The notes: generated from the sequence alone by a model not told the origin. Shown: positions 1,887 to 15,140, numbered from the stretch's first letter. The stretch: 15,140 bases of DNA from Candidatus Micrarchaeota archaeon (GCA_040754495.1 JBFMCO010000023.1:1-15140); one strand, 5' to 3'. Translations and numbers: made by a program.

Positions 1887-2348
1887 TCAGGTGCACTTGC
1901 CGACGAGCGGCTTGTCACCGAATTGCTTCTTTCCCGAGATGCCGCCCTGGTTGAAGGTCAGCACGACATCGTACTCGAACCCGTCGCCTGACGCGCCGCA
2001 GGTCGAGCCCAGGGTCCCGCTCACGCTCCTCTCCTCACCGCCCTTGAACGTCGTGTTCGTGACGTTGGTGAGCGCGTCGCCGTCGAATGCGACTTCGGTC
2101 AGCGTGAGCTTCTCGCTGAGGCGGTTCGACATGACGAGCGTGACAGACGTGTTGTCTAGCTTGAAGCTCGTTATGGAGAACGGCTGCGCGCCGCTCCAGT
2201 AAGAAGCGCTCTGAGATTCCCTTGCCGCCCCTCCCACGCCGGGGAAGAAGCCGAGCAGGGCGATTACCACCAATGCCACGATGAGCACGACCGCCAATAT
2301 GACGAGGTACTCCGTGGCTCCTTGTCCCTTCCTTGTTGAGGATACCAT
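1887..2348 (-). CDS. Archaeal type IV pilin (class III signal peptide), probable major pilin
   Basis: MVSSTRKG|QGATEYLVILAVVLIVALVVIALL has K-G at the cleavage site, Q+1, E+5 and a hydrophobic helix. It also has two C-terminal Cys, three sequons, its own SD (AGGTG) and a TATA-like element. Confidence 0.9.
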   Translation of the reverse strand: MVSSTRKGQGATEYLVILAVVLIVALVVIALLGFFPGVGGAARESQSASYWSGAQPFSITSFKLDNTSVTLVMSNRLSEKLTLTEVAFDGDALTNVTNTTFKGGEERSVSGTLGSTCGASGDGFEYDVVLTFNQGGISGKKQFGDKPLVGKCT

Positions 2349-2383
2349 GGTTACACCTAATTTGTTGGAGATACTGACGCTAG

Positions 2384-2400
2384 CTTTTTAAGCTTTTTGG
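2384..2400 (-). promoter_or_regulatory. BRE/TATA-like promoter of the major pilin
   Basis: The minus strand reads CCAAAAAGC-TTAAAAAG about 35 nt upstream of ATG 2348. An SD-like AGGTG lies just upstream of the ATG. Confidence 0.5.
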
Positions 2401-2429
2401 GGCTCTCCGACGTGTTAGGGCGGCCAAAA

Positions 2430-3455
2430 TCATATGAACTGGGAGAGCAGCCCCGAAAGGAAGGCCTGGGCTACGTAGAACATTATCAGGGACGATATCG
2501 CTATTATGGGGACGTACTTGATGCCGTAGAATGGCTGGCCCCGTGTTATTATGCCGAGCATCAGGGAAACGAGCGAGCTGGTCATCAGTATGAGGGCCGA
2601 GGACACCATCACTATGAAGTCCGGGGTTATGCTCACCCTTCCGGTGAAGAAGGGGAGGTTGGTCGAATCCTCGCTGAAGACCGGTATGCCCTTGACGAGC
2701 TTGACGAACTCCACAGACACGGAAAGCAGGAACGGCATGATGAAGATTACCATGAAGGCGAGGAAGATGACGTGCGAGCGGGTGATGAGGACGACCTCCT
2801 CCCTCATCTCCTCGACTCGCCGGACGTAATCGGCAGAGCTTTCGAGGATGTTCGCCAGGCGGCCGCCGCTCCGCATGGCCCGGTCGAAGAAGCCGACCAT
2901 GTTCCTGAATATGGGAGAATCTATGCGCTCCGCGAGGTCCAGGAACATCACGGATATGGACTCCCCGCCGGTCAGCTTCTTCGCGGATTTCTTGACCTCC
3001 TCGGAAAGGGGCCCGAACTCCGGCCGGGATGCCACCACGAACGCGTTCAGCGGGGTCATGCCGGCCCTGAGGTTGGCCACCACCAGCAGCAGGAAATCCG
3101 GGAGCGCCTTCTCGGTCCTTTTCGTGCGGTCGTCAATCAGGTAGTAGAGGTGGGTGTAGAACGCGAAGAGGGCTAGGAGGAACGCGAGGAACGCGTACAG
3201 GAGCGACTGGGTTACCAGGCCGAGCATCCTCTCGAATGTCTCGAACGGGTCCGCGTATGTGTAGATGGCCGACACGAAGGGGAGGATGGAGGCCAGTATG
3301 CACACGAGCGTCAGCAGGGCAAAGCGCCTGCCGGCCCACTCCAGGACGTCCTCGTCCAGGCCCGCGAAGACGAGCCTGCGCTCTATCCAGCGAATCCAGT
3401 CCTCTGGCAGGACCTTTCCGAAAAAGAGGTATTCCCTCTGGAGGAAGCCCGCCAT
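2430..3455 (-). CDS. Type II secretion system F family (TadC/PilC-like) pilus platform membrane protein
   Basis: ALPDFLLLVVANLRAGMT, FGPLSEE and SGGRLANILE T2SSF motifs with several TM segments. TGATG-coupled to the upstream gene. Confidence 0.9.
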   Translation of the reverse strand: MAGFLQREYLFFGKVLPEDWIRWIERRLVFAGLDEDVLEWAGRRFALLTLVCILASILPFVSAIYTYADPFETFERMLGLVTQSLLYAFLAFLLALFAFYTHLYYLIDDRTKRTEKALPDFLLLVVANLRAGMTPLNAFVVASRPEFGPLSEEVKKSAKKLTGGESISVMFLDLAERIDSPIFRNMVGFFDRAMRSGGRLANILESSADYVRRVEEMREEVVLITRSHVIFLAFMVIFIMPFLLSVSVEFVKLVKGIPVFSEDSTNLPFFTGRVSITPDFIVMVSSALILMTSSLVSLMLGIITRGQPFYGIKYVPIIAISSLIMFYVAQAFLSGLLSQFI

Positions 3456-4327
3456 CAGTATATCACCGGCCTCACGCTCTTGACATAGCCTATCAGCACC
3501 AGCTGGAGCATGGCTGAGAACAGGAGTATCACGAAGATTGTCTGCTCGCTTATCCCTATGCCGCTGAACGTGGAGAGTATGATGAGGAACGTAACGCCTA
3601 TGGAGGGGATGGCGGCCGCAATCAGCATGTAGAGGAGGGTGAGGAAATTGAGTTTGGTCGCGTACTCGCGGGCCAGGTTTATCTGGTGGTTCTCGAGGGC
3701 CGATAGGGTGGTGCGGACCGCGTCCTTGAGGCTGGCCCCGCCCGAGACGGCGTTGAGAATCTGCAGTATTGCCTTCTTCAGGTACTCGCTTTTGGTGCGC
3801 AGCGCCATGCGTTCCAGGGCCACCTCCTCGATTACGCCGGCGTTTATCTCCCTCACAGTGTCCGCGAACTCCTTCGACACGTTCCCGTAGTTGGCCGTCG
3901 CAATGTTTACCATGGAGTCGTAGAGCGAGATGCCCGACTGTATCTGGACGAGGAGGTCGCGCAGCGCGTAGAGGAGCTCGAGGTTTATCTTGAGGGCGAC
4001 CGTCTTTGCCCGGATGCTTGGGTAGAACACGTAGAAGAGGAGGAAGAAGATGAGCATGAAGAACGAGCCTGCGGCCGCTGGCAGGAGGTTCGGCGCCGCC
4101 TCCCTGGCCGCCAGAACGAAGTAGGATATGCCGAACATGACGAGAGATATGACGAATGCGGAGATGAGCGAGGCCGCGAGATAATCCTCGTGGGGCACCC
4201 GGACGTCGGCCTCAAGAAGGTCGTACTTGACGAACGGGAAGACGCCCGAGAGCTTGCGGCCGAACCACCGGAAGCGCCTCCCGACCTCCCTCATGGACTT
4301 CTCGGAAAAGAGATGGAACGGGATCAT
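3455..4327 (-). CDS. Second T2SS F family (TadB/TadC-like) membrane protein
   Basis: True start is MIPFHLF at 4327 (TGATG overlap with the ATPase stop). Motifs include ELLYALRDLLVQIQSGISLYDSM, YGNVSKEF and SGGASL. Confidence 0.9.
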   Translation of the reverse strand: MIPFHLFSEKSMREVGRRFRWFGRKLSGVFPFVKYDLLEADVRVPHEDYLAASLISAFVISLVMFGISYFVLAAREAAPNLLPAAAGSFFMLIFFLLFYVFYPSIRAKTVALKINLELLYALRDLLVQIQSGISLYDSMVNIATANYGNVSKEFADTVREINAGVIEEVALERMALRTKSEYLKKAILQILNAVSGGASLKDAVRTTLSALENHQINLAREYATKLNFLTLLYMLIAAAIPSIGVTFLIILSTFSGIGISEQTIFVILLFSAMLQLVLIGYVKSVRPVIY

Positions 4328-6048
4328 CAGATGACCTTCGCGGGCGGCTGCCCCTTCTCTATCGCAGCGAGCAGGGCCGAGGGCTCCTTGTAATATGTCT
4401 TTATCACGCGGCCGATGCTGTCCACGTCTTCCACGCCGAACTTCGCCATCCACTCGAGGACTTTGGTCTTCTCGGATGCGTCCGACGCGATTTCCCGGGC
4501 GGTCATGCCGGTATGGAGGTTCAGCGACTCGATGTACCTCTTCGGCTCGTTCACGCGCTCGAAGCTGTCGTTCCTGGCCCTCCACTGGTAGATGTGGTTG
4601 ACCGAAGGCTTCTCGACGAACTCTGCTATCTCGGACACCTCGAACGTCTTCCTAATGTTCTTCTTCCTGTCGCGGAACTGGGACACGATGAGGTCTATGG
4701 ACTCGAGCTCTATGACCGGCACCTCTATCGGCGCCTCGGTAAGCCTGCGCAGCGCCTCGCTGGCGGTGTCGGCGTGCATCGTGGAATACACGCTGTGCCC
4801 CGTGTGCATGGCCTCGAAGAGGACCTGGGCCTGGGTCTTCTCCCTGATTTCGCCGACCAGGATGCGGTCCGGCCTCATCCTGAGCGAGTTTATCATCAGG
4901 TCCAGCATGGTCACCTCGCCAAGACCCTCTGGGTTGGGGAGGCGGGAGACCATGGGGACCCAGTTCCAGTGCGAAGCGGAGAGGACGAGCTCCCTCGTGT
5001 CCTCTATGGTGATTATCCTCTGGGAGGTGGGGATGAAGTTCGAGATGGTGTTGAGCAGGCTGGTCTTCCCGGATGCCGTTCCCCCCACGACGAGGATGTT
5101 CAGCTCGTAGTGTATTGCCTGCCACAGCATCGAGGCGAGCTCCGGGGCGATGGTCCGGTTCTTGATGAACTTGACCACCGTCCAGGGGTCCCTGGAGAAG
5201 CGGCGTATTGTTATCGTGTTCCCGCGCCTGGATATCGGGTAGAGCGTGGCGTTCACGCGGTCGCCGCTTATGAGGTGCGCGTCAAGGAGCGGCGCGAGGG
5301 ATGTTATCTGCCGCCCTACCCTGCGCCCTATCTGGCTCGCGTAGTTGGCGGTCTCGTCCTCCCCGCGCAGGAAGACGTTGGATTTCATCCAGCCGAACTT
5401 CTTGTGATACAGGCTTATCGGAGTCTGGGACGTGTTGATGATGACTTCCTCAACGTTGTCGTCCGAGAGCAGGTCTTCCATGTCGCCCAGGCCGAACATC
5501 TTGTAGGAGATGAAGCCGCAGACGACCTTCATGTTGGCCTCGCCGAGCGAGCCGAGGATGCTCTCCGTCACGCTGCAGCGCTTGAGCAGCACTTCGGACT
5601 TCCTCTCCACGTCGCTCATCTGCGTGCTCTCGGGCGGGAGGATGCGGGCGACCTCGTCCTTCACGTATTCGAGGTATATCTCCCCATAATGGCTGAAGAG
5701 CGGGGGGTAGAGGTAGTACCTGGGGGCGAGCTCCTTCTCGTCGAAGACGATGTTCACGGTAGCGACGAGGTGCCCGCCGAAGGCCTCGATGTCGTACTTG
5801 TCCAGCACCCTGCCCCTGGGCTTCTCCTCGCTCTTTGGCGGCATCGCCTTCTCAAGGCTGGCATAGGGCTTCTGGAACGGCAGGGGAGGGTAGTGGATGC
5901 TGACTATGCCGCGCTTCTCCATCGCGAGCAGGATTTTCTCGACCACGTCCTCCTTGGCCTTCAGCTGGGCGGCCAGCTCATGGAGGTATATATTCCGCCT
6001 GGTCTCGAGGATTTCCACTATCTTGTCGATGGTGGTCCGGACGAACAT
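4327..6048 (-). CDS. Type IV pilus/type II secretion assembly ATPase (CpaF/VirB11-like, PilB/ArlI superfamily)
   Basis: Walker A GGTASGKT, Asp box TIEDTRE, Walker B LRMRPDRILVGEIR and His box HTGH...TMHA. Confidence 0.95.
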   Translation of the reverse strand: MFVRTTIDKIVEILETRRNIYLHELAAQLKAKEDVVEKILLAMEKRGIVSIHYPPLPFQKPYASLEKAMPPKSEEKPRGRVLDKYDIEAFGGHLVATVNIVFDEKELAPRYYLYPPLFSHYGEIYLEYVKDEVARILPPESTQMSDVERKSEVLLKRCSVTESILGSLGEANMKVVCGFISYKMFGLGDMEDLLSDDNVEEVIINTSQTPISLYHKKFGWMKSNVFLRGEDETANYASQIGRRVGRQITSLAPLLDAHLISGDRVNATLYPISRRGNTITIRRFSRDPWTVVKFIKNRTIAPELASMLWQAIHYELNILVVGGTASGKTSLLNTISNFIPTSQRIITIEDTRELVLSASHWNWVPMVSRLPNPEGLGEVTMLDLMINSLRMRPDRILVGEIREKTQAQVLFEAMHTGHSVYSTMHADTASEALRRLTEAPIEVPVIELESIDLIVSQFRDRKKNIRKTFEVSEIAEFVEKPSVNHIYQWRARNDSFERVNEPKRYIESLNLHTGMTAREIASDASEKTKVLEWMAKFGVEDVDSIGRVIKTYYKEPSALLAAIEKGQPPAKVI

Positions 6049-12967: not shown

Positions 12968-13020
12968 GCGCGGAAACGGGCTGCCGTCTTGTTTTTATAC
13001 AAAGAATGAGAGGTGTCTAG

Positions 13021-13046
13021 ACTGGAGACCGGAAACTGAAAACGGG
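13021..13046. repeat. Heptamer repeat half-copy E in the nre/endonuclease leader
   Basis: actggagacc ggaaact gaaaacg has the same GAAAC-type arm as copies B and D. Confidence 0.55.
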
Positions 13047-13054
13047 TAACCCCA

Positions 13055-14365
13055 ATGTCTATCGGCAAGGGAGCGTATCTCAAAAAAATCACGGACGGCA
13101 TCCAGCGCTGGCGCACAGTGGAGGTGGGCGACAGTATGGACGGGTCAGAGTTATCCATTTCAAAATCCGTGATAGGTTTGGGGGATTTGCCCGGAGAGAA
13201 GGTTTATGTCCAACTAAACGACCAAACTAAAAAATGGCTTTTTGATACCGCCTTAAAATTATCGGGCGGTTATTCCAGGTTAGCCAAAGCCGTGGGATTG
13301 CCACTTAACAGAAGAGGCAAATGCAAAATTCTCGAATCTTCCCGCAAAAAAAAGATTCAACTCAATGTATTGAATCTGCTTGTACGATATCTTGAAACAA
13401 AGGGAATTGACAGCAGGAAGGAGATAGAAAGTTCGATAACTTTACTGGCCGTGAAAAGAGGTAGCTCTAGAAAAGGCGCAAATTGCCTTTACAGGCCTAA
13501 AATTCCGTTTGATTTCTCCACAGAATCAGGCGCAACTGTAATTTCTGCGTTATTGCACGATGGCGGGATAGATTCCAGGCTGCACCCCCACTATTGCAAT
13601 CCATTAGACAAAAATTTACGAATAAAAGTCTCAGAAGCATTTCGGAAGGTTTTCGGTGAGTTTGACTTTTTAAGAGCGGAGCCTGAAAAAAACGGCCAGT
13701 TATACTTTCCAAAAATTGTCGGTGTGGTGCTTGTTTATGGACTTGGTATGATGTGCGGAAGAAAGGTAACGAATAATCCCGGAGTCCCTGATTTTATCTT
13801 CATTGCATCGGAAAAGGTACGGTCAGCATTTTTGCGGCAGGCATTTGATGATGAGGCATATGTACACCGCAAATACAGATATATCTCATTAAAATTGGCT
13901 TCAGCGAGCAACGGACCATCCAGATTGCTACTGGATTTACAGAAGATATTGGCGGGCCTTGGTATCAAATCCTACGGCCCGAGGTTTTGTGAAACATACG
14001 CGGACACAAATGGGATCGTTGCCACAAAATGGGCCGTTGAAATCCATCACCATGAGAATCTTCTCAAATTCCTGAACTTGGTGGGATTTGAGTCGGTAGA
14101 TAAACAAGCTAGGCTAAAGGAGATTGTAGCCGCTCTTAAACAGCCGCATTTTGCCCTGAAGGAAAAGCCGGGAATACTCTTGGAAGCATGCAGGAAAGTC
14201 CAGGGGACCAATAATTTCATAACCAGCCGTGAGCTGGCTTTGAAGTTAAACAGAAGTCAGGCACTTGCAAAAAAGGAGATAAGAAGGTTACGAAGAGATG
14301 GAAAGTTGGCATTAGTTGGAAGGAAAAGAGGAAATGGCGCAGCTAGATACGTCATGGTGGGGTAA
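13055..14365 (+). CDS. LAGLIDADG homing endonuclease fused in frame to the first 31 codons of host nre, with flanking HTH-like domains
   Basis: Motif 1 ISALLHDGG (13541-13567) and motif 2 [10 protein letters not shown] (13829-13858). HTH-like segments [13 protein letters not shown] and [24 protein letters not shown]. The N-terminus [13 protein letters not shown]...MDGS matches the downstream nre start. Confidence 0.88.
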
Positions 14366-14475
14366 TGATCGGGAAAGGGGCTTACCTGAAAAAAATAACA
14401 AAAAACATCAATTTTCGCTCGGTGGAGGTTAACGAAAAAATGGAAGGGTCCTCTCCCCCTAGTGTTTTTGTTGGC
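13147..14475 (+). mobile_element. AT-rich free-standing homing-endonuclease element inserted in the 5' end of nre, carrying a replacement nre N-terminus
   Basis: Composition shifts sharply (hand count: 13201-13260 is 20/60 GC, 12601-12660 is 35/60 GC). Both junctions fall after a shared GGGTC (ending 13146 and 14450). A/T-ending codons persist through SPPSVFVG (~14475), then host GC3 usage resumes. Confidence 0.8.
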
Positions 14476-15140
14476 GCATGGAACTACCCGAAGGTCTACG
14501 TGGGGCCGATGCTCGCTCCGTATTGGGGCGACACATCCGAACTCGACACCCCGGAGAGCTGGATACCGAAGGGACGGAACCAGGATGATATAATCCGCTT
14601 CAGGCTGGACCTCGTGCGGGGAAAGCACAGGGTGGGCATCAAGGACCTCGACAACCGCCTCGTGGGGAAGCTCCAGGAGATTTCGCTCGCTGAAGGCAGC
14701 GTGGAGAGCGAGGCCCGGTTCAGGCACAAGCCGAGGGGTTTTTCTTTCAACGAGGAGCACCAGCCGTTCGGCCCGAGCGCGGGCATCGAGCGTTTTGACA
14801 TCGGCAACGTGAGGTGGGAGAGGAATCTCGAGAAAGCGTATTATGATACGGACCTGAAGGCGGCCGAAGCCCTCTACAAGGCGTATTCCGAGGGCGTGCT
14901 GTTCTCCCAGATGCAGAAGGCGTTCTCTACCGGGACGATGGGCATCAAGCAGAACCGCAGGCTCGTGCCCACAAGGTGGTCCATAACAGCAGTCGATTCC
15001 GCCCTCGCAGACCACCTCTACGACAGCGTGAAATACCATGACGTGCTGGACTCGTACCACGTCTACGAGTTCTCGAGCCTGAACAACTATTATGCGGTCA
15101 TACTGCTTCCGACGCCATGGCAGTACGAGTGGATAGAGGC
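14365..15140 (+). CDS. nre: Archaeal DNA repair protein Nre (partial, runs off the right edge; absent from the ORF track)
   Basis: Frame 1 from ATG 14365 (TAATG overlap) reads [12 protein letters not shown]...[21 protein letters not shown]...[14 protein letters not shown]...WQYEWIE, which are hallmark Nre motifs. No stop before the window end. Confidence 0.93.

Follow-up and report, generated by a model that had tools for sequence, protein, structure and literature searches.

A putative splicing-independent homing endonuclease cassette at the 5' end of nre in a Micrarchaeota contig

Organization of the nre locus

The locus of the DNA-repair gene nre described here lies at the end of a 15,140-nt stretch of DNA from a Candidatus Micrarchaeota archaeon (GCA_040754495.1, JBFMCO010000023.1:1-15140). 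This stretch, referred to below as the window, spans the whole of contig C23 of a 1.63-Mb, 72-contig metagenome-assembled genome (MAG) that is 80% complete. At this locus, a LAGLIDADG endonuclease gene is fused in frame to one copy of the nre start and is followed by a second copy of this start, which leads into nre itself; this arrangement suggests a mobile element inserted in nre.

The endonuclease is encoded on the plus strand by an open reading frame (ORF) of 436 amino acids (aa; P0001, 13055-14365), the first 31 codons of which specify an Nre N-terminus (copy 1). Copy 1 uses host-like codons, with a GC content at third codon positions (GC3) of 0.74, compared with 0.77-0.81 in the neighbouring genes. 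From 13148, the endonuclease ORF turns AT-rich (GC 0.43, GC3 0.44; GC of the flanks ~0.60), and between 13148 and ~14480 GC and GC3 fall from 0.59 and 0.81 to 0.43 and 0.44. The TAA stop codon of the endonuclease (14363-14365) shares its final A with the ATG of nre (14365-14367) in a TAATG overlap. The frame that starts at 14365 represents a Pfam Nre_N match (3e-81) and is open to the end of the contig (15138); its codons 1-29 form a second, AT-rich Nre N-terminus (copy 2; GC 0.40). Alignment of the copy 1 and copy 2 proteins over 29 aa gave a score of 86, with a maximum of 46 among shuffled sequences. Since a 405-codon open frame would be expected by chance at only ~3 in 10^11 in 43%-GC DNA, as judged from base composition, the two-copy layout and the endonuclease ORF were both considered real. 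The original prediction, which had been made from the sequence of the window alone, described an endonuclease ORF that opens with native Nre codons before an AT-rich switch, a TAATG overlap ahead of a second Nre start, and a host-like first and AT-rich second copy; all of these were recovered here.

In the public gene calls, the endonuclease starts at M28 (P0003, 409 aa; window 13136) and nre starts at M26 of the second ORF (P0169, MEGSSPPS..., 234 aa; window 14440); with these starts, automatic annotation masks both the fusion and the duplicated N-terminus. Both public starts are located directly 3' of VEV codons with the Shine-Dalgarno-like sequence GTGGAGGT(G/T). Only 258 aa of Nre are visible, as the contig ends (15140) inside nre, and the rest of the gene (Nre_C) was absent from a search of the window's own, 80%-complete MAG. 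The contig break inside nre may have no connection with the element.

Empty alleles and boundaries of the element

The closest public Nre (P0170, 90% identical) is encoded on a 5.4-kb contig (L143) of GCA_964540525.1. This contig is syntenic with the window: the 794-aa gene upstream of nre is shared, and the intergenic region, including the TTTTTATA box, is conserved; DNA identity between the two is 96% upstream and 91% in the nre body. L143 carries an empty allele, in which ...GEKLDGS is joined directly to SPPSVFIG with nothing between them, as had been predicted for an allele that lacks the element. Among 24 genomes of species of the same genus, 23 yielded an nre match, and all 23 loci are uninterrupted at the insertion point; the endonuclease was found in 0 of the 36 genus genomes searched. 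Presence at a single site of a conserved gene in the window, and absence of the insert from L143 and the 23 other genus alleles, is the pattern seen for homing endonucleases. In the 5' leader of nre (window 13021-13046 vs L143:2430-2465), the window has 7 extra bases (GGAAACTGAAAACGGGTAACC vs GGAAGCGGGCAACC).

Over its first 68 nt, copy 1 is identical to L143 at 66 positions and is therefore interpreted as the native nre start; its N-terminal protein signature and its length of 31 codons are common to the genus relatives. The last 25 nt of copy 1 are identical to L143 at only 17 positions, with mismatches clustering from 13123 on, and no 25-nt window in the 653 nt of the nre body is as divergent. 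Several of these differences (ATG, GGG) agree with copy 2. Taken together, these observations are suggestive, though only suggestive, of a short co-conversion tract of ~25 nt on the left side, which would imply that nre-like codons also preceded the endonuclease in the donor.

Copy 2 aligns poorly to L143, and copy 1 is closer to the near relatives than copy 2 is. The 29 codons of copy 2 include an FRS motif, like those of other Micrarchaeota lineages and of the occupied alleles L053 and L055. On the right side, the first 30 nt after copy 2 match L143 at 13 positions, and from 14482 the match is 11-15 per 15 nt. This places the switch from foreign to native DNA at ~14484-14490 and leaves a clear right-hand co-converted tract of ~36 nt. 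Foreign DNA was thus assigned to ~13130-14487, because native identity is lost at the end of copy 1 and returns at ~14484-14490. Between the carried copy and the empty site, ~16 of 42 positions differ, including two serine codons switched between AGY and TCN. The original prediction had placed both junctions after GGGTC. This holds for the left junction, which is at 13147|13148; on the right, comparison with L143 moves the switch ~35 nt further, and the second GGGTC is only the homologous point in copy 2. The features of the locus are listed in Table 1.

Table 1. Features of the nre locus in the window
Feature	Position	Strand	Evidence
TATA-like box TTTTTATA of the native nre promoter	12992..12999	+	Read from sequence, 56 nt upstream of ATG 13055; putative promoter role
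Copy 1: displaced native nre 5' end, 31 codons, in frame with the endonuclease	13055..13147	+	GC3 0.74, match to L143
Shine-Dalgarno-like GGAGGTG before M28	13120-13126	+	Sequence; 9 nt upstream of M28
M28 ATG: alternative, possibly element-borne endonuclease start (409 aa)	13136..13138	+	Public call P0003, starts of homologues
Free-standing LAGLIDADG endonuclease gene: helical N-terminal domain, double core, C-terminal winged helix-turn-helix (HTH)	13148..14365	+	Pfam, AlphaFold, PDB matches, GC
LAGLIDADG motif 1	13541..13570	+	Catalytic Asp169 codon 13559-13561; Asp invariant in 21 family members (alignment D138)
LAGLIDADG motif 2	13829..13858	+	Asp265/Asp266/Glu267 at 13847-13855; D234 and D235 invariant, E236 at least 90% conserved (alignment numbering)
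C-terminal winged-helix/HTH module	14210..14326	+	Weak Pfam HTH_11 match; modelled helix-helix-helix-strand-strand
Shine-Dalgarno-like GGTGGGG, then TAATG stop/start overlap	14356..14367	+	Read from sequence
Copy 2: foreign recoded replacement nre 5' end, 29 codons	14365..14451	+	GC 0.40, DNA far from native start and empty allele
Co-converted tract: foreign codons over the probable target motif	14452..14487	+	13/30 nt match to empty allele; AT-rich third positions to ~codon 37
Native nre body, running off the contig	14488..15140	+	91% DNA identity to L143, GC3 0.81, Pfam Nre_N

The endonuclease and its relatives

The endonuclease matched Pfam LAGLIDADG_3 (PF14528) with 23.3 bits (cut-off 22.5), and in an alignment of 21 homologues the acidic residues of both LAGLIDADG motifs are invariant or at least 90% conserved. 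In an AlphaFold model with a predicted local distance difference test (pLDDT) score of 92, the N-terminal domain is helical, the core is a double αββαββα unit and the C-terminus forms a winged helix. The best PDB matches found with Foldseek are archaeal intein endonuclease domains (7qsu, 5e-9; 1dq3; 2cw7) and PI-SceI, followed by WhiA, I-Tsp061I and I-DmoI. Based on the conserved residues and the modelled fold, the protein is predicted to be a free-standing LAGLIDADG enzyme that is probably active.

The wider family comprises 484 cluster representatives at 50% identity (E≤1e-3). Within it, the nre-type clade occurs in 2 of the 401 sampled genomes of the host phylum; nre itself was present in 40 of the 41 relatives searched. 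Homologues with at least 38% identity were found directly upstream of nre, and mostly overlapping it, in 13 other archaeal loci, which include every readable locus (L052/57 and L059 from Aenigmatarchaeota; L054/56 from uncultured archaeon LFW-242_1; L053; L055; L058; L068-L075). The expectation that related endonucleases would precede nre elsewhere was thus confirmed. In most of these relatives the endonuclease gene extends 4-41 nt into the nre start; in L059, L068 and L075 the annotated Nre match begins from a few nt to ~90 nt after the endonuclease stop. The endonuclease gene is AT-rich relative to its flanks in L055, L056, L057 and L068, which are all four of the other loci profiled, and several homologues start with MD and have a length of 405-417 aa.

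A sister clade (33-40% identity) is found in intergenic positions 160-215 nt downstream of nre (L060, L077-79, L083), and at L076 a sister-clade endonuclease (1989-3260) is convergent with nre (3257-4531). No duplicated nre C-terminus was detected beside the sister-clade genes at L060, L077-79 and L083 (z≤3.0). From these positions, the endonuclease lineage seems to have changed between the two ends of the same gene. The hosts of the sister clade include a MAG labelled as Methanosarcinales.

More distant family members (~400 aa) are located directly before other conserved genes, and their stop codons frequently overlap the next start by 4 nt; the target recurs within a clade. These targets are uL22 (six loci: L064, L066, L092, L098, L106, L134), a PIN_9 protein (three loci: L080, L086, L093), prefoldin (two loci: L065, L113), S4e (L085), L24 (L110), S17 (L114), RtcA (L107) and a metallophosphoesterase (L101). 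Upstream of the distant members at L062 and L064-L066, a search for duplicated starts found nothing above shuffles. Weak LAGLIDADG matches were also present in 857- and 983-aa frames of related genomes (G042:C43:39487-40113, G068:C12:22452-22961); these are probably intein-containing genes.

Displaced nre starts in other loci

Clear displaced native nre stubs are present in two of the nre-linked loci (L068, L055), and weaker traces in two others (L053, L057). At L068, the endonuclease is preceded by 31 codons of a native nre start, MEQDNSLWKLPGDPRCVLCKGSKMICGKERC, which end in a stop and match the locus's own AT-rich replacement start with z = 17.5 over 27 aa. This locus (L068:1836-1990 and 3187-3370) is the best second example of the arrangement; its stub holds a CxxC zinc-finger motif, and its AT-rich replacement start comprises ~58 codons and overlaps the 3' end of the endonuclease gene. 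The L055 stub consists of 13 codons, MLGKAAYLKKPTN, that score above every shuffle, and its ATG is located precisely 87 nt (29 codons) upstream of the endonuclease ATG. The weaker traces are MGIGKGAYLMKLW, ending in a stop, at L053 and ..SLCAKCKG.. at L057. At the nre-linked loci L056, L058, L059 and L070-L075, nothing above shuffles was found in searches for displaced nre starts.

In L055, L053, L068 and L057, the endonuclease starts at an ATG belonging to the element, which an AT-rich, TATA-like leader sets apart from the stub, and the stubs of these relatives end at varied codons (~13, ~17, ~31). The window stub is unlike them in that it is complete, undecayed, in frame and without a leader, which fits a recent arrival. 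Capture of the host start codon, as put forward in the original prediction, therefore stands for the window as an in-frame fusion, but it is not a trait of the family, since in the relatives the endonuclease gene has an ATG of its own and a TATA-like box, and even in the window M28 may be the start. Host start-codon capture may thus be specific to the window copy.

Proposed mechanism and alternative explanations

The insertion is precise with respect to the empty allele and has moved the native start without breaking it up; the composition of the insert is foreign, and its endonuclease clade tracks nre in other archaea. Taking these observations into consideration, the locus probably represents a mobile, splicing-independent homing-endonuclease cassette within nre, located between the ...DGS and SPPSVFVG codons; we would put the probability of this explanation at about 0.72. 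In this scheme, the enzyme would cleave empty alleles, the recoded codons would protect the occupied allele, and nre would be expressed through translational coupling.

The enzyme would cut empty nre within the DNA that encodes the conserved SPPSVFVG-region motif. The cut site is placed in this motif because foreign DNA flanks it on both sides and because the motif is the most conserved stretch of the alignment. Repair would then copy the cassette, with its ~405-codon endonuclease gene, replacement nre codons 1-29 and SPPSVFVG-motif codons, from the occupied allele. The right crossover would fall in the nre body, as the right homology arm, and the left crossover in the nre start upstream of the donor's endonuclease, as the left homology arm. 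Recoded copy 2 and the motif would rebuild a working nre that is no longer cut by the enzyme, and the diverged codons would discourage recombination between copies 1 and 2, which would delete the element.

The window endonuclease appears to be without a promoter of its own and would be transcribed from the nre promoter; with no leader in the window copy, transcription must come from the native nre promoter. A scan for bacterial-type promoters and terminators was uninformative for this archaeal sequence. Translation of the endonuclease could begin at the nre ATG, which would give the 436-aa fusion, or at M28 (13136), which may be the endonuclease's own start. Nre would be translated from the same mRNA by re-initiation at TAATG, aided by a GGTG 5 nt upstream.

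Several points weigh against this explanation. The rebuilt nre encodes the same motif as the empty allele, and self-immunity would thus have to rest on synonymous differences. The stretch of copy 1 in which the mismatches cluster is a naturally variable linker, which is why left-side co-conversion is no more than suggested. In-frame capture of the host start could be an accident of this single insertion; in the relatives, where the endonuclease gene has a TATA-like box and a separate ATG, the stubs end elsewhere, and the in-frame GS|SPP fusion may accordingly be a one-off. The 3' portion of nre lies beyond the contig end and a search of the MAG did not recover it, so nre may be incomplete. Finally, the nearest known endonuclease is only 61-63% identical, and no donor was found.

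Some of these points are also central to a rather unlikely alternative, in which the same mobile endonuclease was fused to nre by accident. In this case, the cassette would have arrived through ordinary intronless homing or illegitimate repair of an nre break, the endonuclease would use M28 as its own start, and the 27 upstream native codons would be in frame by chance; taking over the host start codon would play no role in the element's function, and the window copy may be a dead end. Consistent with this, the homologues use their own ATG, often as MD, and have lengths like that of the 409-aa gene call; TATA-like leaders split stub and endonuclease in four relatives, in which the stub ends vary; and M28 is preceded by a Shine-Dalgarno-like sequence. 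In addition, ATGGACGGGTC may derive from the element, since copy 1 departs from the empty allele from 13123 on. However, ribosomes that start at ATG 13055 would encounter no stop codon and would produce the fusion in any case, and with the first 68 nt of copy 1 being native, there is no room for an element-borne promoter. Furthermore, the 29-codon distance between the stub ATG and the endonuclease ATG in L055 fits an ancestral in-frame arrangement.

The endonuclease could instead be a domesticated, WhiA-like LAGLIDADG/HTH partner or regulator of Nre that is kept in an operon and is not selfish, given that its link to nre holds in different phyla and at both ends of the gene, that it carries a C-terminal winged HTH, and that WhiA is among its structural matches. 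Nevertheless, the clade was found in 2 of 401 phylum genomes and in 0 of 36 genus relatives when nre is present in nearly all, the endonuclease is always AT-rich relative to its host, and duplicated, decaying nre starts have been left behind. The catalytic acidic residues, which have been lost in WhiA, are invariant. Domestication therefore appears very unlikely; the rarity of the clade in the phylum, its AT-richness and its fidelity to nre are better explained by a selfish element with a fixed target than by a conserved partner of Nre.

Splicing of copy 1 to the nre body, by a degenerate intein, a bulge-helix-bulge (BHB) intron or a group I/II intron, is hardly credible. A splicing element would be compatible with insertion in a conserved motif, with preservation of the frame upon removal of 13148-14451, and with an endonuclease core that is most like intein endonuclease domains. 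An intein was rejected because neither a Pfam scan nor the structural model revealed a Hint domain, the N-terminal 110 residues are helical in this model, and the endonuclease C-terminus (...YVMVG) is followed by TAA, a true stop, with no terminal His-Asn. An archaeal BHB intron and a group I/II intron were likewise rejected: cofolding of the junctions gave -24.9 kcal/mol, with a mean of -25.7 among shuffles (z 0.24), so that junction pairing is no better than that of shuffles, and no Rfam intron family was found at E≤1, the sole match being to a sub-threshold S10-leader. Moreover, splicing would serve no need, since the element supplies a full replacement start that includes an ATG. The original prediction of an element that lacks intein features and is independent of splicing was therefore upheld.

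A chimera of the metagenome assembly, which the 72 contigs of the MAG and a window that is a whole contig ending inside nre might invite, is highly improbable, as the sequence on either side of the insert is native and follows the order seen in L143, the insert keeps the frame and does not extend beyond one gene, and the same architecture is found in independent assemblies of other taxa.

Comparison with known systems

A search of the literature on nre/NreA or Micrarchaeota together with homing endonucleases found no such element; only a report on archaeal group I introns (PMC6125680) was relevant. Free-standing homing endonuclease genes (HEGs) are generally limited to intergenic sites when no intron or intein carries them, according to a 2026 NAR paper (PMC13619312), and the seg and mob endonucleases of T4-like phages are free-standing genes that spread by "intronless homing" (PMC2988022, PMC2790892). 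Like the putative nre cassette, the HEGs of T4-like phages have no self-splicing host; they cut a nearby conserved gene where the HEG is absent, flanking markers are co-converted, and immunity comes from differences in the target sequence. Unlike these HEGs, which are located between genes, the nre element lies inside a coding region and duplicates part of nre. The sister clade found downstream of nre resembles the phage-type HEGs.

Archaeal intein endonucleases (PI-PfuI, PI-TkoII, and those of the Tli and Pho VMA inteins) provide the closest structural and sequence matches to the nuclease core, and archaeal inteins likewise insert in conserved motifs of housekeeping genes. The nre element differs from them in that it has no Hint domain, ends with a true stop and carries additional N-terminal helical and C-terminal winged HTH modules. 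Where inteins rely on protein splicing, the nre element would restore its host gene at the DNA level.

In the Aeromonas phage Aeh1, mobE splits nrdA in an arrangement described as "genes in pieces", in which both gene halves work and reassemble as protein. As proposed for nre, this is a free-standing endonuclease gene within a coding region that involves no splicing; unlike in nrdA, the separated piece of nre appears to have been replaced by a duplicate, which would make the native piece redundant.

A tentative generalization, to which we would give slightly less than even odds, is that gene-start replacement might be a general third route, besides introns and inteins, by which archaeal homing endonucleases enter coding sequence. 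The large HTH-LAGLIDADG-winged HTH superfamily would then be made up of clades each tied to the 5' end of a single conserved gene (nre, uL22, the PIN_9 protein gene, S4e, L24, S17, prefoldin or RtcA). Such elements might be expressed on arrival through in-frame fusion and gain their own start as the stub decays, and they might shuttle gene starts between DPANN lineages. Start replacement as proposed for nre would explain the mosaic, horizontally acquired gene starts in DPANN genomes, and the carried starts offer a natural marker with which gene flow could be followed from Micrarchaeota to the rest of DPANN or back. The endonucleases represent an uncharacterised LAGLIDADG family with a likely target of ~20 bp in the DNA of the nre motif, for which both the empty and the occupied sequences are known.

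The system most similar to the nre locus is that of the mobile endonuclease ORFs (mORFs) of fungal mitochondria. In Allomyces macrogynus (atp6) and Glomus sp. (atp6, atp9, cox2, nad3), mORFs bring in a C-terminal gene end of foreign origin, and the displaced native end stays behind next to the element; the inserted gene end has been attributed to horizontal transfer, and the reading frame of the mORF may continue that of its host gene (PMC3630166). The nre element and the mORFs have in common a free-standing LAGLIDADG ORF (mORFs may also be of the GIY-YIG type) that is located in a coding region without an intron or intein. In both, a diverged duplicate gene end completes the gene, and the displaced native end is kept and is closer to that of near relatives. 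In contrast to mORFs, which affect the 3' end of genes in organelle genomes, the nre element replaces a 5' end together with its start codon, in an archaeal chromosome. Furthermore, mORFs leave the native end downstream, whereas the native start of nre is fused to the endonuclease and nre restarts at TAATG. By analogy, the nre locus is best viewed as the mirror image of the fungal mORFs, that is, a gene-end-replacing, splicing-free cassette at the 5' end. Together with its empty allele and its relatives, it would provide a clean prokaryotic case of an element that replaces the part of the gene it displaced, and would extend the mORF idea to archaeal chromosomes and to the 5' ends of genes.

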